Virus genome (UHGV): UHGV-0116081
Direction: 5' to 3' (one strand)
Source: a virus
DNA: 12,142 bases
Made by a program: the position numbers and the translations under genes. The stretch's first letter is position 1, and every line of letters begins with the position of its first letter. Of the stretch, positions 2,307-12,142 are shown in pieces. The notes under the pieces are model-generated. The model ran no database searches. It had not been told where the DNA came from and worked only from the letters and a program-made list of their open reading frames with translations.

Positions 2307-3452
2307 ATGAAATACATAAAATCTTCATCGTTGCTGGCATTAACTTTGCTTTTTAGCTCTGGATTCGTTAACGCAGACAATAAACAAACGCTGATAGAAG
2401 CCGCTACCGCAGGGGATACCGCAGCACAAAGTGAGTTAGGGACAAATTATTTTGATGGTGTCAATGGTTTTGATAAGGATGTAGTTGAGGCCAAGAAGTG
2501 GATTGATCTCGCTGCAGAAAAGGGAGACAAAGTAGCATATTATGCACTTGGGGTTATGTACACATTTGGCGAGGGTGTAGATAAAGACTTAAATAAAGCA
2601 GTTGAGTACTACAAACTTGCGGGAGATGCTCGTGAAGGTAGAGCCTATAACAATCTTGGTGCTATTTATCAAAAGGGGATGCTTGGTAAAGTAGATCATG
2701 CGCTCGCCATTAAATACTTCAAACTAGCCTCTGATGCCGGGTATGTTAAAGCTAGCTACCTTCTTGGTGCGTATTACCAATATGGTAAAGGTGTACAAAA
2801 GAGTTATAAAAAAGCTTTTACTTATTACAAAAAAGCGGCGGATCAAGGTAGTTCAGATGGCATGTTCGCATTAGGCACCTTATACGATGACGGTTTAGGT
2901 GTTAAACGCAACGATGCCGAAGCAATTAAGTGGTATAAAAAAGCTGCTGAACTCGGAAACGCCGATGCCATGACAAATCTTGGCATTATGTATGAGTATG
3001 GTGAAGGGGTTAAAAAAGACTATAAAAAAGCAGCTGAGCTTTATCAGGCTGCTTGTGATAAAGAAGATAAAAATGGCTGTGATTACATTGCAGAACTGAA
3101 AGAAAGCGGCAAATATCGAGCGCCGGCTTCCAAAGCCAAAACAAAATCCGCCACCCAGCGACTTATTGCTAAATCCATTGATAAGGGCGTTAACGCTACA
3201 TTTACCTGGCAGGGTGATGATGCTACCTTCACCGCTAATGATGGCAAAGTTGACTGCACCTTCCTGAAGGATTTTTCAGAGAAAGGAGGCAATCTGGCTA
3301 CCTCGTTTGTTTGCACCGATAACGTTCAAATCATACTGAAGCAATTCAGAGATACCAAGAATGCCTACCTCGCGGTAATGACTGACAACTTCAACACAGA
3401 AGTTAAATCATTTTCGGTCAATGTGTACGTGACTAATACTGGTTCAAACTAA
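2307..3452 (+). CDS. secreted Sel1-like repeat (SLR/TPR-like) protein with a non-repeat C-terminal domain
   Basis: Track ORF begins at a TTG (2262); the first ATG at 2307 gives MKYIKSSSLLALTLLFSSGFVNA, a classic Sec signal peptide with a VNA cleavage site. About six tandem ~36-aa Sel1-type repeats (e.g. AEKGDKVAYYALGVMYTFGEGVDKDLNKAVEYYKLA; ADQGSSDGMFALGTLYDDGLGVKRNDAEAIKWYKKAA). The last ~110 aa are non-repetitive with 4 Cys. Sampled lines are AT-rich (about 30-50% G+C by hand count). Confidence 0.85.
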   Translation: MKYIKSSSLLALTLLFSSGFVNADNKQTLIEAATAGDTAAQSELGTNYFDGVNGFDKDVVEAKKWIDLAAEKGDKVAYYALGVMYTFGEGVDKDLNKAVEYYKLAGDAREGRAYNNLGAIYQKGMLGKVDHALAIKYFKLASDAGYVKASYLLGAYYQYGKGVQKSYKKAFTYYKKAADQGSSDGMFALGTLYDDGLGVKRNDAEAIKWYKKAAELGNADAMTNLGIMYEYGEGVKKDYKKAAELYQAACDKEDKNGCDYIAELKESGKYRAPASKAKTKSATQRLIAKSIDKGVNATFTWQGDDATFTANDGKVDCTFLKDFSEKGGNLATSFVCTDNVQIILKQFRDTKNAYLAVMTDNFNTEVKSFSVNVYVTNTGSN

Positions 3453-4628
3453 TGCAGCTATGCCTTTTACCTTGCTTAAAAGTTCAAGCTGTCGTGAATA
3501 AGGTTTTGCGCAATAGTAGGCTTTGATAATCTGCCCCGGTGTCGCATCGCCGGGGTCGAGTCCTTCCTCGCCCAAACACGCTACTTTGACATTAAGACCG
3601 ATACTGGTCAGTCGCCTGGCTGCGGCCATCGTGTTGCGTATAGCTTGCTTTTCACTATCCCACATCATAATCACATTACGTAATCCACGCGCCTTGAGCG
3701 TCAGGAACGCGCCCAACTGATCTTCTGCATCCTGAGTGGTGTTACCAGATAGATGCATCCCGAACGTTCCTATCGGTTCCACGTAATCGCGTAATGTTTC
3801 TTCATCAAAAATAGCTCGTTTAACCCCCATAACATCGAACGCCCCCTCACAGACAACTACAGTCTGTTTGCCGACTGCATTGTGGCCGTTGTAGAGAAAT
3901 TTACCCGATGCTGGCAGCTGCATGGGGAACAGATACCGGCGTTCTGCTGCACCGGTAATGTCACGACCCTGGAAGGTCTTCATCACGCCATCCAGATCGT
4001 AAACCGGTATCAGTATTCGCATATCGAATACCTGTCCTTTGACCTGGTCTGTGTACGGATCGACGTATGCGTGCTTGCCTTCGACGCAGTAACGCAGATC
4101 AAAGTATTTGGCCAGCTCCGGGGAAATCTGGCGCTCCACCAGATAATCAGGAAGACGACCGTCAATGGGGAGTTCGTAATGGCGCGGGAGAGCTACCGGT
4201 CCTTCCAGTTCAACCTTGCTGGCCAGCACGATCTCTTCCTTCTTCGGCGCCCAACCTTGTGAGATCAGCGCGTTCTGGACGTACTCTTCAAAATCGCGAC
4301 GGGATTTGCCGCTGTAATGCTTTAGGAAGACCAGCTTATTGAACTGAATCTCTTCGGGATGATCACCTGCAAAGCATTTGCCGACACCACTGGTCAGGTT
4401 GAAATAAACCTTCCAGTTTGAGCTGCCGCATACCGGACACTCTTTAATGTTGACCTCTCGTCCGCGAGTACTGACTCCACCATGACGGTAGATGATCCCT
4501 TCCATATCGAGCCATTGCTCAAAATCCAGCTCGGTCAGTAATTCTTTCAAGTCGCTCACGTTCTTACCCCTGTTTTTTGCAGGTAATATCTTGATAAGCC
4601 TCGGTATTTGAATACCATAAAGGCTCAT
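3444..4628 (-). CDS. DNA primase (zinc-ribbon + TOPRIM; DnaG / T7 gp4-primase-like)
   Basis: Zinc-ribbon-like CPVCGSS...CFAGDH followed by a TOPRIM signature VVVCEGAFDVMGV and a downstream acidic motif MMWDSEKQ. Start set at ATG 4628..4626 (MSLYGIQ...); the track's longer ORF begins at a TTG at 4655, so the start is uncertain by 9 codons. Lies directly downstream of the helicase gene. Confidence 0.8.
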   Translation of the reverse strand: MSLYGIQIPRLIKILPAKNRGKNVSDLKELLTELDFEQWLDMEGIIYRHGGVSTRGREVNIKECPVCGSSNWKVYFNLTSGVGKCFAGDHPEEIQFNKLVFLKHYSGKSRRDFEEYVQNALISQGWAPKKEEIVLASKVELEGPVALPRHYELPIDGRLPDYLVERQISPELAKYFDLRYCVEGKHAYVDPYTDQVKGQVFDMRILIPVYDLDGVMKTFQGRDITGAAERRYLFPMQLPASGKFLYNGHNAVGKQTVVVCEGAFDVMGVKRAIFDEETLRDYVEPIGTFGMHLSGNTTQDAEDQLGAFLTLKARGLRNVIMMWDSEKQAIRNTMAAARRLTSIGLNVKVACLGEEGLDPGDATPGQIIKAYYCAKPYSRQLELLSKVKGIAALV

Positions 4629-4682
4629 GTGTTTTTTCTTTTGTGGTTTTGGCAAAAGAGAAATTTGTTCTCTTCTGGAGAC

Positions 4683-4709
4683 AGGCGTGGAGAGTGTTTC
4701 CCCACGCCT
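4683..4709. other. stem-loop in the helicase-primase intercistronic gap (8-bp arms AGGCGTGG / CCACGCCT, 11-nt loop)
   Basis: Inverted repeat read directly. On the plus strand it is followed by TCTTTTTT, but no plus-strand gene precedes it; on the minus transcript no U-tract follows. Function unknown. Confidence 0.3.
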
Positions 4710-4715
4710 TCTTTT

Positions 4716-6056
4716 TTAGAGGACGTCCATAATGCGTTCGATGAATCGCATTTGTTCGAGGTTCTGCTTAACGCGGATGCTTACGCCGCCTTTCTGGTTA
4801 CGTGAACCAGCGAAGTAAAGACGCGCTTCGCCTTTCGCTTCTTCTTCTTCCGTTTTGTTGATAGTGATAACGAGGTCAGCGATACGCACCTTCTCGATGT
4901 TGTCCGCTGCGTGCATCATTGTAGCCACCTCAGAAGCGCCACCTTCTCTGTTAGTCTGCGATGCCGTGATGCCGGCAACGTTGTGTTTGTCGTACAGCGC
5001 ACGCAGGTCAGTGTAGATGCTGCGAATGTTAGCGCGGTCGTCGCGGAGGTCGTAGCTGGCACGCATCAGGTCAGCGTAGTCGACCACAACCATATCGGGG
5101 ACCATACCGTTGGCTTTCATGCTGCCCAACATACGGTCCAGATCTGCGGGCGACATGCTTCCGGACGGTCGTTCAACAATCCACAAACTTCCCACGCCTT
5201 TCGTCGCACCCAGCTCCGCCAGTTTGCGATGGACGTCATCGCGACGTTCCACCAGCCTGGACATTTCGGTCTCAGACAGACGGGCGTCAAAGCGATCTGA
5301 CAGAATGGAGGTGTGAACTTCCAGCGACAGATACAGGACGTTGTAACCGGCAAGCGTGGCGTTGATGGAAAACTCCCCCATCGCCGTCGATTTACCAGAC
5401 TTAGCGAAGCCCATAAACAGCACCATTTCACGCTTTGCCCAGCCTTTCTGGTAAAGCAGTTTGTCGAGCAGCGGGAGGCCGGTAGTGATGCTGTTTGGCA
5501 CGTAATCGTCGGACGCTTCGTACTCACGGGCCTTGTAACGCTCCGCTGATTCTGCGAAGTAATCGTAAATGCCGGTCGCTTCGTTAGAGCCAATTTGCTG
5601 GACCTTAGCCATGATTGCCATCGCGCCCTGGAAATCACCCTTCTCTTTCATCTCAGCCGCTTTAATTAGCGCATCGTCGAACGCTACGCTTTTAGCAAAT
5701 GTCGCGACCTGGTCGACCATGTACGCCGTATCTGACAGCTTCTCAGCGAGAATGCGCTTAAACGCCTCAACAACGTCAGGGAACAGCTCTTCGCGGATCG
5801 TCTTATCGCGTTTGGCGCGTTTGAGCATGTCGAGGATGGCTGATGATGATGGTGCGCTCTTATACATTCTGTAGTAGCCCGACACCATGTTAACCAGAAT
5901 GGAGTTAGCCGCATTAGAGAACTGGTTTGGGGCAACCAGATCGCCTGCGCGAGTCAGAAACTCATGGTCGCGACAGAAGTAGGCTGCGAGTCTATTCTGG
6001 AAGTCGTCGTCGAACTCTTCAGACAACCCTCGTCCTGTGTGGCAAAGTTCGGTCAT
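4716..6056 (-). CDS. replicative DNA helicase, DnaB family
   Basis: 446-aa ORF with ATG at 6056..6054 and AAGGAA upstream. Walker A FMGFAKSGKST, a Walker B-like hydrophobic stretch ending in D (MVVVDYADL), and a DnaB H4-like motif ASQTNREG. Length and motif order fit the DnaB C-terminal RecA-like domain plus an N-terminal domain. Confidence 0.85.
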   Translation of the reverse strand: MTELCHTGRGLSEEFDDDFQNRLAAYFCRDHEFLTRAGDLVAPNQFSNAANSILVNMVSGYYRMYKSAPSSSAILDMLKRAKRDKTIREELFPDVVEAFKRILAEKLSDTAYMVDQVATFAKSVAFDDALIKAAEMKEKGDFQGAMAIMAKVQQIGSNEATGIYDYFAESAERYKAREYEASDDYVPNSITTGLPLLDKLLYQKGWAKREMVLFMGFAKSGKSTAMGEFSINATLAGYNVLYLSLEVHTSILSDRFDARLSETEMSRLVERRDDVHRKLAELGATKGVGSLWIVERPSGSMSPADLDRMLGSMKANGMVPDMVVVDYADLMRASYDLRDDRANIRSIYTDLRALYDKHNVAGITASQTNREGGASEVATMMHAADNIEKVRIADLVITINKTEEEEAKGEARLYFAGSRNQKGGVSIRVKQNLEQMRFIERIMDVL

Positions 6057-6116
6057 GTGCTTTCCTTTGGTGCTTAAACAATTTGTTTTCTAATACTAAA
6101 AAAGCCAGATAGGGGA

Positions 6117-6842
6117 TCAACAGAATCGCCGTGCTTCTTCCAGTTCTTCCGGGAAGTGCGCGTAAATCACACGCTCAGGCACGATTTCCATCAACCAGAC
6201 AGCGGAGAAGATGATACGGATGCGTTTATCTCGGGTAATGCCACGCAGACGCTCCAGAATCCACTCAAAATAGCGTTCCTGAATCGGGTCACGCTGCATG
6301 TCTCCAAGATGCTTAAAACTCACCAGAGAGTCATCCAGACGGGTTACAGCGCGTTTGGCTAACTTCTCTTCGAATATCTCGATCAACTCGGGCTGCCAGA
6401 GATGCTGGGGGCGCGGTAATTTGTCCCACAGCCGTCGTGCAGCTGCGGAAAGAACGGTGGAGATAAAGTAGTCGTATGAGCAGCAATAGCGGTCAGCAAA
6501 CTGGCGTGCTTTCCAGAGCGACGTTTTGTTGACCGTCGACAACTCCTGATATGGCACACGCTTCAGACCGGTTGTGAATGGAGCCGTCTCATAGTGTTCA
6601 CGACCATGCGACAGCATGATGTATGAGTACTGGCGCTTGTATGCCTCAGTGAAAAGGCATGTGGCCATGAGCGGGTGCATATCGCGATAGTCAAACCATT
6701 TGGTTTCGAACAGTTCCGCCTCGTCCTTGCAACGTGACAGGCCAATGTTCTCCGCTACCCACTTATCCATGACTGCGGTGTTCCACTCTGTCATGAAATC
6801 GTACTGGTCATTGTCGATAGTGTTGAAGAAGATCTGGCTCAC
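6117..6842 (-). CDS. hypothetical protein, first gene of the helicase-primase operon (candidate initiator or helicase loader)
   Basis: 241-aa ORF with a GTG start at 6842..6840 preceded by AAGGGA; an internal ATG at 6794 has no Shine-Dalgarno. No recognised motif. The functional suggestion comes from position only. Confidence 0.6.
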   Translation of the reverse strand: MSQIFFNTIDNDQYDFMTEWNTAVMDKWVAENIGLSRCKDEAELFETKWFDYRDMHPLMATCLFTEAYKRQYSYIMLSHGREHYETAPFTTGLKRVPYQELSTVNKTSLWKARQFADRYCCSYDYFISTVLSAAARRLWDKLPRPQHLWQPELIEIFEEKLAKRAVTRLDDSLVSFKHLGDMQRDPIQERYFEWILERLRGITRDKRIRIIFSAVWLMEIVPERVIYAHFPEELEEARRFC

Positions 6843-6947
6843 ATGATTCCCTTTAATAGGTATGCACTTACTTATCTAAGTGAGCGAATCATAGCGACTG
6901 GAGATATTTTTGGGAAGTGGAAACGGAAGGGAGTTGTTCTGGTGGGT

Positions 6948-6961
6948 GTCTTTTAAAAGAC
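6948..6961. promoter_or_regulatory. 14-bp perfect palindrome GTCTTTTAAAAGAC in the divergent intergenic region
   Basis: Exact self-complementary sequence read directly, embedded in a 282-bp AT-rich spacer between divergent genes. A half-site-like GTCTTAGAC recurs at about 7024..7032. Candidate operator or origin-binding site. Confidence 0.3.
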
Positions 6962-7124
6962 CTGCTTCCGTATATATTTAATAAGTTACTTATTATTTAT
7001 ATACAGAAACAGGCATAACTTGTCGTCTTAGACACCCAGAAGCTCTACACTTTGAGCCTGTAAAATTGATTAAAAACTTATGTGTAAAATAGAACGCATT
7101 AGTCAGTAGCTAAGAGATGCAATA

Positions 7125-7892
7125 ATGGACGATTTATCGGTATACGCGAGATCATTGGATAAGGCTAAATACTATGTTTACTGTCTCTATGATACAGAAG
7201 ACAAGATGAAAAGACCGTTTTACATAGGAAAAGGCAAATCGACTCGTTGTCTCGATCACATCAAGTATCCCGATGACTCTCCCAAATCCATGCGGATCAA
7301 AGAACTTTTGGCTAATAAAAAATTAGGCATAGATATTCTTCGTCATGGTATGGATGAAACCACAGCCAAACTTGTTGAGGCGACATGCATCGACCTTATG
7401 GGGGTCGGAGAGCTTACGAATAAGGTACGAGGAAGTGGTTCCATGATGGGCAGAATATCACTGGACGCCTACCATCACTTAGTGCTGCAAGAGGAAACTG
7501 AAATTGCTCCTGAGCACGCCGGTCTTGCCTTCCTGCTAAACAGCACCTACAAGTCAGGAATGTCCGCTCTGGCATTATATGAAGCTACGCGTGGCGTATG
7601 GGCAAAGGTTCCAAGAGACGAGAATCTCAAATATGCCTACGCTACATATGGGGGCCTGATAATGGAAGTTTATCAGATTGAATGCTGGGTCAAAGCCGGT
7701 TCTCAGCAGTACTTTACAAGGGATATAGCTCTTGGCCCCGACACAAAACGTTATGAATTTGTTGGCAGAATAGCCGATGAGCATATTAGAAAACTGTATG
7801 TAGGCAAATTAATCAAGAAGCCACCAAGCTACGGCAGCCCTTTTGTGAAGGTTGGGGTGGTTAGGAATGAACATAGTGTTAGCGCGGCATAA
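7125..7892 (+). CDS. GIY-YIG nuclease-domain protein with an unrecognised C-terminal domain
   Basis: N-terminus YYVYCLYDTEDKMKRPFYIGKGKSTRCLDH matches the GIY...YIG...R...H arrangement of GIY-YIG nucleases (compare I-TevI and UvrC N-termini), with a downstream Glu (VEATCID) and Asn (TNKVRG) in plausible catalytic positions. C-terminal ~160 aa not recognised. Sampled lines are about 40% G+C, lower than the neighbouring replication genes. Confidence 0.7.
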   Translation: MDDLSVYARSLDKAKYYVYCLYDTEDKMKRPFYIGKGKSTRCLDHIKYPDDSPKSMRIKELLANKKLGIDILRHGMDETTAKLVEATCIDLMGVGELTNKVRGSGSMMGRISLDAYHHLVLQEETEIAPEHAGLAFLLNSTYKSGMSALALYEATRGVWAKVPRDENLKYAYATYGGLIMEVYQIECWVKAGSQQYFTRDIALGPDTKRYEFVGRIADEHIRKLYVGKLIKKPPSYGSPFVKVGVVRNEHSVSAA

Positions 7893-7906: not shown

Positions 7907-7946
7907 TTATGCATTGGCGCGTACATTGCGCCAATGCATAATTTTT
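7907..7946 (+). terminator. intrinsic (Rho-independent) terminator between convergent genes
   Basis: Perfect 14-bp stem TTATGCATTGGCGC / GCGCCAATGCATAA (7907..7920 and 7928..7941) with a 7-nt loop, followed by TTTTT (7942..7946). Starts 15 nt after the GIY-YIG stop; the T-tract abuts the stop of the convergent minus-strand gene. Confidence 0.7.
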
Positions 7947-8304
7947 AACCTTTCTTCATCAACTCTCGTTTGATTTCGTCGGTACGCATCGTGACGTCGG
8001 CAGCAGTGATCGCCTCGTTCAGTTTCACGATGTCTTCGATTTCCTGCGGTGACTTCTCTGCCAGATGGAAAATGGCTGCACGAATCACATCAGAACGGGT
8101 GAACTTCTCAAAACGAGGGATAAACTTCATCATCTCCAACAGTTCGAAGTACTCGTCTTCCAGCGACATTGTGCGGCTTTTAATCTTCTCTTTGCCACGA
8201 GTCGGACGCCCCTGCGGTCTGACTGGCTGGCGCAGTGGAGTGCTGCTTTTGGCCGGTTCTTTAGGCTCATTGCGCTTTGCAAGGTCTCCCATTCTCATGG
8301 ACAT
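7945..8304 (-). CDS. small partition / centromere-binding-like protein (ParG-like, possible ribbon-helix-helix)
   Basis: 119-aa basic protein immediately downstream of parA; its ATG (8304..8302) overlaps the parA stop and is preceded by GGAGGAAG. Disordered Lys/Arg/Pro-rich N-terminus and helical C-terminus (SRTMSLEDEYFELLEMMKFIPRFEKFTRSDVIRAAIFHLAEK). Assignment is by size and context. Confidence 0.55.
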   Translation of the reverse strand: MSMRMGDLAKRNEPKEPAKSSTPLRQPVRPQGRPTRGKEKIKSRTMSLEDEYFELLEMMKFIPRFEKFTRSDVIRAAIFHLAEKSPQEIEDIVKLNEAITAADVTMRTDEIKRELMKKG

Positions 8305-9288: not shown

Positions 9289-9558
9289 ATGTCCGCACTG
9301 AAAAAGCAGCGCATCGATTTGAGATTAACCGATGACGATAAAAGCATCATCGAGGAAGCTGCCGCAATGTCTAACCAGAGCATTACCCAGTTCATGGTTA
9401 GCAGTGCATCCGAACGTGCCGTGAAGGTGATAGAGCAACACCGTAGACTGGTTCTAAGTGAAGAGTCCTGGAATCTGGTTATGGATGCTATAAGCAATCC
9501 TCCGGCACCGAACGACAAGCTGAAACGAGCTGCCAATCGTCTGAAAAGCATGGAGTAA
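9289..9558 (+). CDS. DUF1778-type (TacA/AtaR-like) antitoxin, ribbon-helix-helix
   Basis: 89-aa ORF with ATG at 9289 and AGGGGG about 5 nt upstream. Sequence pattern (KKQRIDLRLTDDDKSIIEEAAAMSNQSITQFMVSSASERAVKVIEQHRR...) matches the length and layout of DUF1778 antitoxins that pair with GNAT toxins, and it sits directly upstream of a GNAT ORF. Confidence 0.8.
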   Translation: MSALKKQRIDLRLTDDDKSIIEEAAAMSNQSITQFMVSSASERAVKVIEQHRRLVLSEESWNLVMDAISNPPAPNDKLKRAANRLKSME

Positions 9559-9565
9559 TTTACTC

Positions 9566-10087
9566 GTGAGCAATACGACGATCGAGATTTTCTCTGGAGA
9601 GAACGATTATGATCTAAACGGTTTTGATTGCGGCGAAGAGTCACTAAACGCATTTTTGACCAACCACTTAAAAAGACAGCATGAAGGAAAAATTCTTCGC
9701 GCTTATGTGCTTTGCACTAAAGAAGAAATACCAAAGGTATTAGGTTATTACACTTTGTCAGGCAGCTGCTTTGAGAAAGAAACCTTACCTTCAAAGAGTC
9801 AGCAAAAGAAAGTGCCTTATCGGAATGTCCCAAGTATCACTTTAGGCAGACTGGCTTTGGACAAATCTCTTCAAGGTCAGGGGCTTGGCTCAATGCTTGT
9901 AACTCACGCAATGCGTGTTGTGTACAATGCATCTCTTGCGGTAGGCATTCATGGGCTTTTCGTTGAGGCGTTGAACGATAAAGCCAGGGCGTTTTATAAA
10001 AGTTTGGGCTTTATCCAGCTGGTTGGTAACAACGATCGTTCTTTGTTCTATCCAACAAAATCTATCGAAAAATTGTTCGAAGAATAA
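9566..10087 (+). CDS. GNAT-family acetyltransferase toxin (TacT/AtaT/ItaT-like)
   Basis: 173-aa ORF with a GTG start at 9566, 7 nt after the antitoxin stop, with GGAG inside the antitoxin 3' end. GNAT acetyl-CoA-binding region (ITLGRLALDKSLQGQGLGSMLVTHAM) and overall pattern typical of toxin-type GNATs. Confidence 0.8.
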   Translation: MSNTTIEIFSGENDYDLNGFDCGEESLNAFLTNHLKRQHEGKILRAYVLCTKEEIPKVLGYYTLSGSCFEKETLPSKSQQKKVPYRNVPSITLGRLALDKSLQGQGLGSMLVTHAMRVVYNASLAVGIHGLFVEALNDKARAFYKSLGFIQLVGNNDRSLFYPTKSIEKLFEE

Positions 10088-10335: not shown

Positions 10336-10507
10336 TCACCACTTCCACTGTGCTTTGAAGACGCTTGTTATCTTCCCGCCGTTCTTTCTCTTCCATACTG
10401 CGTCTGGCCATATACCCGCCATAGGAGTATGCGCCGACAAGGACTAGAATGACGGCGGCCAGAGTGAACAAAGCGGATTTCATTTTGAACAACAGGCCGT
10501 CGAACAT
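10256..10507 (-). CDS. i-spanin-like protein (Rz-like; N-terminal transmembrane anchor plus charged periplasmic helix)
   Basis: 83-aa ORF with ATG at 10507..10505, 2 nt after the endolysin-like stop. N-terminal TMD (ALFTLAAVILVLVGAYSYGGY) followed by a Glu/Arg/Lys-rich predicted coiled coil. Shorter than typical Rz. Confidence 0.5.
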   Translation of the reverse strand: MFDGLLFKMKSALFTLAAVILVLVGAYSYGGYMARRSMEEKERREDNKRLQSTVEVVNETNSEIRQKDASAIHRELHDKWVRN

Positions 10508-10509
10508 AC

Positions 10510-11202
10510 TTACACTAATCCTTTCTGGTGCTTGCGAACCTGGGACCAGGCAATGAATGCTGCCACAAGAATGGTAGCTACGCCAAAGATGATGCGTACC
10601 GTATCTCCACTGGAGATATTGCCTTGCGCTTTATCCATTGCGGCAGAAACTTGAGGCATAACGTCAGCAATTTGTGCAAGGCCAATACCTGCAGTGACTG
10701 TAGCACCTGTGGTTTCTTTTGTTACAGGAACGGCTTTTACAGCCTTTACCGGTTTGACAATGCCGGCACGTCGCAGACCTTCTTCGATAAGTTCTGGTGT
10801 ATACCAGCTATTGGGAGTTTTCAGCGGACCTCGGCCATTTTCATGTCTAATGATCGCCTCTACCAGCGGTCTTAAGGTCTCGTAGTCATGCAGATCGATA
10901 ATCATATCTGGTGCTACTCCAACGGCTTTGGATACCTCGTTCACATAAGCCAAAGTGTTGTTCTCATGTGGAGGCGCCCAGCGTTCGATGACTTCGCGGA
11001 TCGTATCAATGCTGGAGCCATCTTTTGCGCGGCGCTTGTCGTGGTAAGTAATGAGTGTCACTGCCAATGCCCGAATCCCCCACACGGGGTCTTTAAACGT
11101 GCAGAAGCGCGGTTCTGAAGAGTTGTTGACTAAGCCCTGCCACGGCGCTCCTTTATCAAGATTACCGGGGTTGTTATTACGAATGCCTCTCGGAGTTTTC
11201 AT
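10510..11202 (-). CDS. endolysin-like protein (peptidoglycan hydrolase candidate) with a C-terminal transmembrane segment
   Basis: Start placed at ATG 11202..11200 (MKTPRGIRNNNPGNL...) because AGGAGA lies 8 nt upstream; the track's start at 11229 lacks this. Sits between a holin-like gene and the spanin pair. Contains the motif GIRNNNPGN, which I associate only vaguely with phage lysis proteins; the catalytic family is not identified. C-terminal hydrophobic stretch IIFGVATILVAAFIAW. Confidence 0.45.
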   Translation of the reverse strand: MKTPRGIRNNNPGNLDKGAPWQGLVNNSSEPRFCTFKDPVWGIRALAVTLITYHDKRRAKDGSSIDTIREVIERWAPPHENNTLAYVNEVSKAVGVAPDMIIDLHDYETLRPLVEAIIRHENGRGPLKTPNSWYTPELIEEGLRRAGIVKPVKAVKAVPVTKETTGATVTAGIGLAQIADVMPQVSAAMDKAQGNISSGDTVRIIFGVATILVAAFIAWSQVRKHQKGLV

Positions 11203-11672: not shown

Positions 11673-12142
11673 TTACTCTGCTGGTATTGTTGGCCAGTCA
11701 ATATCCGGTGCCGTTGATGTGTCAATGCGGTTCAATAAAACTCTATACTTCTTCCATGCAGTCAGCAACGATGCTTCTTCCTCCGTTGCAATCTCCAAAT
11801 CTACAGCATCCTGAAGTGGCGCAATGTGCTCGCTGGCTACCTGCATCAGACTTTTTTTTGTTTCTTCCGCTTCCCGTACCTGAAACAATTTTTCTGTTTC
11901 CTCATCCTTCTCCCAGGATGTGCCGTCCCACTTCTGATATTCCCCATCCGGTGATAACCAGGTGACATTTTCCGGTAATGGCCCAAGTTCAGAAATAAAC
12001 AACGCGTCCCCTGATTCCACGTCATAGACCGTTTTACCCCTGTGGTCTTCAACGAGACTCCATGATTTATTTTCGCTGTTGAATACGGCCACGAAGCCTG
12101 CCGGAATATCTGGCGGTGCAATATCGGTACTGTTTGCTGGCA
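11673..12142 (-). CDS. tfa: tail fiber assembly protein (Tfa family), N-terminus beyond window end
   Basis: C-terminal sequence ...[61 protein letters not shown] closely matches what I recall of enterobacterial prophage Tfa proteins. The track's GTG start at 12092 is probably internal: the frame stays open upstream to the window edge (...[25 protein letters not shown]...), which also matches the Tfa N-terminal region. Confidence 0.85.

Follow-up and report, generated by a model that had tools for sequence, protein, structure and literature searches.

In phage T4, the primosome is made up of the helicase gp41, the primase gp61 and the loader gp59, with gene 41 lying upstream of gene 61 as separate genes on one strand; phage T7 has a single polypeptide, gp4, in which a zinc-ribbon/TOPRIM primase at the N-terminus cooperates with a ring helicase of RecA fold. 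Helicase loading is the least conserved step in bacterial and phage replication, and the closest known systems considered here also include the helicase loaders lambda P, SPP1 G39P and VdhL1/2. We analysed UHGV virus genome UHGV-0116081, a stretch of 12,142 nucleotides (nt) that is called the window below, in which a gene for a 241-amino-acid (aa) protein of the family PHROG 2500 is followed on the minus strand by genes for a DnaB-like helicase and a primase. Judged by its DNA matches and gene order, the window is a segment of an SSU5/pHCM2-type phage-plasmid from Enterobacteriaceae, where elements of this type often carry genes for resistance and toxins, and the three-gene cluster reads as the primosome part of a phage-encoded, T4-style replisome. 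We propose that the cluster serves the phage's own lytic DNA replication, not plasmid maintenance, and, with moderate confidence, that the 241-aa protein is a helicase-recruiting or loading factor of a new family. The genes of the cluster are:

6117..6842, minus strand: 241-aa gene, PHROG 2500 member, with a GTG start and an AAGGGA ribosome-binding site
4716..6056, minus strand: DnaB/T4 gp41-type hexameric replicative helicase, 446 aa, from profile and PDB matches and motifs
3444..4559, minus strand: DnaG/T4 gp61-type primase, 371 aa, from profile and PDB matches and motifs, start corrected

In the table of open reading frames (ORFs), these genes appear as three co-directional minus-strand frames at 6842..6117 (241 aa), 6056..4716 (446 aa) and 4655..3444. 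They match phrog_2500 (E 2e-110), the DnaB-like helicase family phrog_19 (E 4e-87) and the DNA primase family phrog_47 (E 5e-62); because of these matches, and that of the helicase to Pfam DnaB_C (E 6.5e-13, 49.1 bits, cut-off 27), we regard them as real genes rather than chance frames. The intergenic gaps measure 60 nt between the 241-aa gene and the helicase and 156 nt between helicase and primase, and co-transcription of the three is plausible. SSU5, its relative Cyrano and an E. marmotae plasmid all annotate primase genes of 1116 nt (371 aa), and SSU5 has in-frame stop codons within the stretch that matches the extra 32 codons of the 403-aa primase ORF; the start at GTG 4559 is therefore preferred and the 403-aa form was dropped. 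With the primase start so moved, the run of three genes given in a preliminary description of this DNA, which had been made without database searches, keeps its limits and order. Its calls of a DnaB-like helicase and a zinc-ribbon/TOPRIM primase are likewise borne out by PHROG, Pfam and PDB matches and by the motifs.

Conservation of these motifs, counted in 89 relatives that are all less than 90% identical to each other, shows both enzymes to be intact, with all catalytic motifs retained; the degenerate motifs that the preliminary description had considered were not found. In the helicase, the Walker A motif GFAKSGKST (G216-T224, 5385-5411) contains K222, kept in 98% of relatives, the Walker B motif VVVDY contains D326 (5079-5081, 97% conserved), and Q367 and R370 of the SQ..NR motif are present; the motif set as a whole is conserved at 94-98%. 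R419 and N420 are conserved in 97%, and R419 (4800-4802) is a candidate arginine finger by its likeness to the DnaB KxRNG motif. Aligned with T4 gp41 from residue 55 onwards, the helicase motifs line up with GKS, VDY and AQ, and a match of sub-threshold score to NCBIfam phage_DnaB covers residues 30-371. The primase has a zinc ribbon of the form C-x2-C...C-x4-H (4359-4439) with C41, C44 and C62 (100%) and H67, a position that is Cys in 80% of relatives. It also has the R..P..GR motif of the RNA-polymerase domain, with R181 conserved in 100%, and the TOPRIM residues (3555-3848) E238 (100%), D301 (98%), E303 (89%) and D335 (97%). Since Glu is found at position 303 in 89% of relatives, D301-S-E303, a D-x-E rather than a D-x-D, is the norm of the clade. 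The primase residues align with B. subtilis DnaG and T4 gp61, and its Pfam scores fall just under the cut-offs (DNAG_N, 24.0 versus 26; Toprim_2, 22.0 versus 22.1).

The preliminary description had likened the two enzymes to a split T7 gp4. As in gp4, a zinc-ribbon/TOPRIM primase is paired with a RecA-fold ring helicase, but in the cluster these are two genes with the helicase first, and the match to the PHROG family of fused primase/helicases (1e-13) is far weaker than that to the DnaB-like family. The nearest solved relatives are instead the gp41 chains of T4 primosome structures for the helicase (E 2.5e-10) and B. subtilis DnaG and T4 gp61 for the primase, and the helicase-then-primase order is identical to that of T4, so that the comparison moves from T7 to T4. 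Like T4, the SSU5-type element also encodes a gp32-like single-stranded-DNA-binding protein (SSB), a RecA/UvsX-like recombinase and an SbcCD (gp46/47)-like nuclease pair. The replisome genes of SSU5 further comprise a DnaE-type polymerase and a FEN-type exonuclease, and the same genome encodes a DnaQ-like exonuclease, RNase H and a ligase; this gene set is a nearly complete replisome together with tools for recombination-dependent replication. The label 'UvsY' in Cyrano was not confirmed by Pfam.

More than 800 Enterobacteriaceae plasmids match the window DNA at 80-98% identity, and the best match covers 88% of it at 98%. The identity is 85-89% for the SSU5-like phages SSU5, Cyrano, CMS-2020a and PhiR41_1. 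Membership of the window among SSU5-like phage-plasmids is supported by synteny with SSU5, Cyrano and the E. marmotae plasmid. Direct orthologues of the cluster, in the same gene order and with the same upstream inverted repeat, are found in SSU5 (SSU5_038-040) and the E. coli phage-plasmid Cyrano (CYRAN_31-33), where the orthologues of the 241-aa protein are 96% and 92% identical to it. Helicase and primase are already annotated in both, and the 241-aa orthologue is labelled hypothetical only.

Replication of the plasmid state is accounted for by another gene of the same element type. SSU5_069, wrongly annotated as 'replication helicase', is an initiator of the Rep_3 (RepFIB-type) iteron class (Rep3_N plus Rep3_C, WH1 plus WH2) that lies ~25 kb from the cluster and is followed by a 0.75-kb non-coding stretch; in SSU5 and Cyrano the Rep_3 RepA is placed at about 25-30 kb from the cluster, and the window's own Rep gene lies outside its 12 kb. 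Typing of SSU5-like plasmids rests on this IncFIB-type Rep gene; among the relatives, the type rep_cluster_488 is recorded. Expression of both systems can be compared in the LF82 transcriptome, which contains the Cyrano lysogen in overnight LB culture. The values are normalised reads (PMC9928086, S1 Table):

Cyrano RepA: 133 reads
Cyrano ParA: 50 reads
Cyrano ParA partner: 89 reads
Cyrano toxin and antitoxin: 344 and 592 reads
CYRAN_31, homologue of the 241-aa protein: 6.2 reads
CYRAN_32, helicase: 21.1 reads
CYRAN_33, primase: 10.6 reads
Cyrano ligase: 5.9 reads
Cyrano DnaE: 10.1 reads
Cyrano gp32-like SSB: 9.1 reads
Cyrano terminase subunits: 7-8 reads

Since the reads of the cluster lie near the terminase level and those of RepA and ParA are far higher, the cluster behaves as a lytic gene set. 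Its distribution can be set beside this result: the three-gene arrangement is kept in more than 100 divergent siphovirus genomes of ~100-120 kb, with or without plasmid genes. The module occurs without ParA nearby in Pseudomonas phage nickie, Rhizobium phage RHEph10, Xanthomonas phage JGB6 and IMG/VR contigs, and of 128 divergent IMG/VR loci, 114 have a PhoH-like gene upstream where ParA would be. Where there is a plasmid initiator, its type differs between elements although the module does not: SSU5 has Rep_3, Chitinibacter has TrfA plus ParA, and RHEph10 has a gene annotated as RepC. This pattern suggests repeated, independent conversion of the phage lineage to a plasmid lifestyle. The stretches concerned in these related ~100-kb siphovirus genomes are 15446-17590 of locus L248, 13562-14507 of L090 and 17429-18493 of L003.

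The preliminary description had instead taken the helicase and primase, next to partition genes, as the basis of autonomous replication, that is, the cluster and the partition genes as the plasmid replicon of the element. Partition genes are indeed present, ParA itself ~1.5 kb and the gene of its 119-aa partner ~1.1 kb from the cluster, and the element is an extrachromosomal, autonomously replicating phage-plasmid, as had been supposed. Nevertheless, we consider it very improbable that the cluster is what maintains it: the gene expressed in the lysogen is the separate Rep_3 RepA, while the cluster stays near background; the identical module is found in phages with PhoH upstream and no ParA nearby; and the plasmid typing of the relatives rests on the Rep gene. 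This division of labour follows from published data once these are assembled, and in the phage-plasmid literature we found no discussion of the helicase-primase cluster. The element would thus hold two replication systems, a Rep_3 replicon for lysogeny and a silent T4-style replisome for lytic growth, a distinction that tells genes for copy number from genes for phage production.

The 241-aa protein matches phrog_2500 over its full length (E 2.1e-110, residues 1-241). It is predicted to be all-alpha, with 13 helices, and mildly acidic, with an isoelectric point (pI) of 6.1; the family median is 8.7. A word-indexed search with this protein returned 35 clusters only, all named ones from Enterobacterales, and an exhaustive profile search returned 752 family representatives at 50% identity, of which 472 had an E of 1e-10 or lower. 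All of 80 diverse family members matched phrog_2500 and none contained a Pfam domain; among 5.8 billion proteins no named or domain-fused member was found, all being hypothetical and without a Pfam domain, and an HNH insertion in one member is uninformative. A literature search for 'phrog_2500' found nothing. Sequence and profile searches of the 241-aa protein against Pfam, NCBIfam and PDB were all empty, in agreement with the preliminary description, which had recognised no motif in this leading protein. Its structural model is confident and gave no structural match (best E 0.24 in a BFVD fold search), so that the predicted fold appears to have no characterised relative.

Comparison with known loaders and initiators gave the following picture. 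Like the T4 loader gp59, the 241-aa protein is small and, by prediction, all-alpha. A resemblance of the modelled fold to gp59 is a weak lead only: neither Pfam T4_Gp59_N nor T4_Gp59_C matched, the hhalign probability was 0.07%, and a phmmer search of gp59 against the SSU5 ORFs (record 21.5-103 kb) and the Cyrano segment reached a best E of 0.59. The gp59-like gene of Vibrio phage henriette, whose genome is of similar size, was considered as a filler of the PHROG 2500 slot and rejected, as this is a T4-type (gp43/44/45) phage in which the gene adjoins that for its SSB. With regard to the AAA+ loaders DnaC and DnaI, the 241-aa protein has no Walker A motif, is predicted all-alpha and has no DnaC-like match in Pfam, NCBIfam or PHROG; neither in sequence nor in fold does it resemble lambda P or the N-terminal domain of G39P, and there is no Pfam Rep3 match, no winged-helix features of Rep_3 and no iteron in 6000-7200. 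The suggestion of the preliminary description that the protein is by position an initiator or loader is thus strengthened by gene linkage, described below, and finds no backing in homology to DnaC, lambda P, G39P or Rep, with gp59 weakly alike in fold. Within the family, K48, D51, Y52, R113, Q114, D117, Y123 and P143 are invariant, and W49, R53, W110 and Q188 are conserved in at least 97%. Two blocks stand out:

6684-6701: K48-W-F-D-Y-R53, conserved block in the 241-aa protein
6492-6515: W110..R113-Q114..D117, conserved block in the 241-aa protein

The polar and aromatic set formed by K48, W49, D51, Y52, R53, W110, R113, Q114, D117, Y123, P143 and Q188 is predicted to be the working surface. 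As a whole, the family evolves fastest of the three, with a mean p-distance of 0.68 compared with 0.54 and 0.51 for the two enzymes.

Despite this divergence, the gene keeps its place. Among divergent viral loci with enough flanking sequence, a gp41-type helicase gene lies downstream on the same strand within at most 703 nt in 133 of 133 (median gap, 385 nt), and the primase follows in 115 of 115. Once duplicates are removed, 103 of the 106 distinct divergent sequences have the helicase; in the SSU5-like group it is found downstream in 79 of 80 loci, and the primase in 74 of 75. In Chitinibacter the PHROG 2500 and helicase genes overlap by 4 nt. What is new here is this case for PHROG 2500 as an obligate helicase partner with an unmatched fold. 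Mirror-tree co-evolution was tried as a test of partnership and dropped, as all three proteins co-diverge and the difference between partners is too small. Among the SSU5-like loci whose downstream flank is 2.5 kb or longer, L039 alone has no helicase after the 241-aa gene; it may be a rearrangement or carry an insertion. A small gene of 74-89 aa stands between the PHROG 2500 and helicase genes in 70 of the 133 divergent loci (for example at 7773-8042 of L089 and 7787-8023 of L005), whereas the window and SSU5 are without it; the copies in nickie and Morganella have sub-threshold Hfq/Sm-like matches (E 8e-6 and 2e-4), and in nickie and metagenome contig L007 the small gene overlaps the helicase start.

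Longer forms of the protein, 18 of 80 sampled PHROG 2500 members, occur in a different setting. Their core is followed by clustered Cys residues (P-G-C-F-G-x-P-H-A...C-x2-C...C) and a strongly basic tail (R-R-E-R-x-R-R-H-R-A-K-K), and such a Cys-rich basic tail was found in none of ~160 helicase-adjacent phage copies. All eight long forms with readable context lie on chromosomal or metagenomic islands of Alphaproteobacteria, for example in Bosea sp. 124 and Bradyrhizobium jicamae, and neither a helicase nor a primase is encoded within 8-9 kb of them. A tyrosine integrase is encoded within ~2.5 kb in seven of these islands, the eighth contig stopping at the gene, and the surroundings are of defence type (restriction-modification, DndB, reverse transcriptase, TIR, McrA/HNH and SNF2). 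In all eight, an element begins 17-70 nt past the long-form stop codon and consists of two inverted copies of GTAACGC-YYYCC around a core of 30-45 nt that is almost pure A/T within DNA of 53-61% G+C; 20 of the 42 occurrences of the motif fall inside 1.55% of the sequence (p about 2e-25), a count in which three of the eight loci were looked at only after the motif had been defined. The loci are:

Island loci L246, L247, L249, L250, L251, L253, L254 and L255: element about 20-140 nt after the long-form gene

One of them, L250, also has five iterons of 19-22 nt on a 22-nt phase at 10472-10597. The layout of the island element is origin-like, resembling initiator sites arranged around an unwinding element; TATAAT-like hexamers in the cores make an operator-flanked promoter an alternative. 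Long forms fit a helicase-capturing core domain to which a DNA-targeting module has been added. We describe here for the first time these tail-bearing relatives as a cassette of gene plus origin-like element on integrase islands; defence islands may thus contain a replication cassette that had escaped notice.

The window, too, has an element beside its PHROG 2500 gene:

6961..7013, minus strand: inverted repeat upstream of the 241-aa gene, arms CCTGYTTCYG / CRGAAGCAGG, A/T core of ~33 nt, then TCTTTT

The arms are 26 nt long and 85% complementary, and as RNA the repeat would form a hairpin of -27.6 kcal/mol (z = -7.4) followed by UCUUUU. By a strict criterion it is kept in 55 of 87 SSU5-like loci, with conserved arms and a drifting core, and 55 of the 59 such elements within SSU5-like loci sit at this very site; the inverted-repeat/A/T element is absent from 153 of 155 loci of distant phages. 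In SSU5 the repeat comes after a co-directional gene, and in the window it is retained though the upstream gene is on the other strand. Given the hairpin with its U-run and the co-directional gene ahead of it in SSU5, an insulating terminator is the simplest reading. The repeat may be either this or a protein-binding, origin-like element, with the design of arms plus A/T core and a GCTTCC core being common to it and the island elements. Beside the short-form gene, a search for a family-wide cis motif in 100 distinct divergent phage loci found promoter-like words alone to be enriched.

On the reading that we prefer, the cluster would be transcribed from its own promoter upon induction or infection, and the 241-aa protein would act as an assembly partner that recruits or loads the ring helicase onto DNA. 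The loading substrate would most likely be single strands covered by SSB, in R-loops or D-loops that the RecA-like recombinase makes; the primase would then bind the helicase, and the phage DnaE polymerase would take over and extend. The protein would thereby stand in the functional place of T4 gp59 or lambda P and be homologous to neither. In the island relatives, the same core would be tethered to DNA by its tail and so guide a borrowed helicase to the origin beside the gene. Put more broadly, and as a speculation that we think unlikely, PHROG 2500 would be a new, structurally unmatched helicase-capturing domain, bare in large siphoviruses and phage-plasmids and fused to a tail in islands, where it would recognise the adjacent origin and hijack the helicase of the host or of a helper phage. 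If so, Alphaproteobacterial islands without replication enzymes of their own would be phage satellites or replicative defence islands of a new kind.

Several observations weigh against the loader reading and its lytic setting. In the mirror-tree analysis the 241-aa protein correlates with the helicase at r = 0.885 and with the primase at 0.854, a difference that vanishes among distant pairs. Strictly conserved charged and aromatic residues are no less characteristic of enzymes or nucleic-acid-binding sites than of loader interfaces. The RNA-seq data come from a relative only (Cyrano, ~86% DNA identity) and from the lysogenic state only, and a single operon is not established, as the helicase reads are ~3-fold above those of the first gene. 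Moreover, as the island relatives do without an adjacent helicase, the core domain might on its own bind DNA as an initiator, or be a regulator. A sequence-specific, origin-binding lytic initiator, in the role of lambda O or SPP1 G38P, would melt an origin near its own gene, where the helicase would enter. That long forms adjoin an origin-like element in all eight islands, one of them with five 22-nt-phased iterons, speaks for such an initiator, as do the family median pI of 8.7, the SSU5-like inverted repeat with its A/T core just upstream of the gene and the first place in the cluster that is common for initiators. We still find it doubtful, since the DNA-targeting tail is absent from every helicase-adjacent phage copy and the window protein has a pI of 6.1, no iterons lie in or beside the window gene, and neither a winged helix nor another known DNA-binding fold was recognised in the protein. 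In addition, only promoter-like words are enriched in the 100 distinct divergent phage loci, the inverted-repeat/A/T element is missing in 153 of 155 loci, and the U-run after the SSU5-type element makes it readable as a terminator.

The TATAAT-like hexamers between the inverted repeats of the island cores, the basic, Cys-rich tails of the long forms, and the promoter-proximal place of the gene, flanked in divergent phages by promoter-like words, would also suit a transcription regulator of early or replication genes whose island relatives act on an operator-flanked promoter. Near-absolute linkage to one enzyme gene at 25-30% identity would be unusual for a regulator, however, and no match to a helix-turn-helix or sigma-like fold was found. 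The island elements are placed after the gene, where two genes converge; we rate this role as quite improbable. Improbable, too, is another kind of replisome accessory or enzyme, for instance one that couples helicase and DnaE in a tau-like manner, binds the SSB tail or acts on nucleic acid or nucleotides: no similarity to known enzyme folds or polymerase III subunits was found, and on the islands there is neither a polymerase nor a helicase that such a protein could couple. With more than 750 clusters at 50% identity, a confident but unmatched model and near-absolute helicase linkage, PHROG 2500 is a candidate for a new class of loader or initiator, and this candidacy is testable in existing phages, namely SSU5, Cyrano, nickie and RHEph10.

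Further non-coding features of the cluster are:

6888..6916, minus strand: candidate sigma-70-like promoter, TTCCCA, 17 nt, TATGAT; a consensus match only, no commoner than in shuffled sequence
4683..4709, minus strand: hairpin right after the helicase stop codon, no U-run, -21.4 kcal/mol, z = -4.8
4618..4663, minus strand: near-invariant non-coding block of ~45 nt, CTTTTGCCAAACCACAAAAGAAAAACACATGAGCCTTTATG, from the alignment of window, SSU5, Cyrano and the E. marmotae plasmid

The promoter candidate overlaps a conserved TTCC-rich tract, CCCTTCCGTTTCCACTTCC, a block that is kept in SSU5 and the E. marmotae plasmid. The hairpin after the helicase gene shows compensatory changes between window and SSU5 on one side and Cyrano and E. 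marmotae on the other, and is a possible mRNA-stability or attenuation element. The block at 4618-4663 is near-invariant although coding DNA on either side diverges. Within it, the ATG at 4628 opens an upstream frame of 23-24 codons that in the window is in frame with the primase; in SSU5 it is out of frame, and its stop overlaps the primase start codon (ATGA). This part of the helicase-primase spacer might encode a leader peptide, couple translation or serve as a regulatory site. An Rfam scan of the cluster found no known RNA.

The window also contains a Sel1-repeat gene on the left and, to the right of the cluster, genes for a holin, an endolysin and lambda-like tail-fibre assembly, as well as ParA and the following:

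7945-8304, minus strand: gene of the 119-aa ParA partner, phrog_5111, SSU5_034 family; its start codon overlaps the ParA stop by 1 nt
7125-7892, plus strand: GIY-YIG (LEM-3-like) gene in a variable slot between the ParA-partner gene and the 241-aa gene
9289-10087, plus strand: DUF1778 antitoxin and GNAT acetyltransferase toxin pair (KacT/TacT-like)

In Cyrano, the homologue of the 119-aa protein is annotated as 'RelE/ParE putative toxin'; the window protein has no toxin-family match and seems closer to the small centromere-binding proteins that accompany type Ib ParA than to a toxin. The slot next to it is filled differently in each relative, by a DUF2971 gene and two others in SSU5, by CYRAN_30 (phrog_1762) in Cyrano and by the GIY-YIG gene, on the opposite strand, in the window, and it may be a cargo or defence hotspot. 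In the homologous region of the Cyrano lysogen, the toxin-antitoxin pair is the part with the highest expression. Inside the tail-fibre assembly gene of the window, at 11713-11911 on the minus strand, Rfam gives a strong match to IS009 (RF02111), with 189.6 bits against a gathering score of 117.

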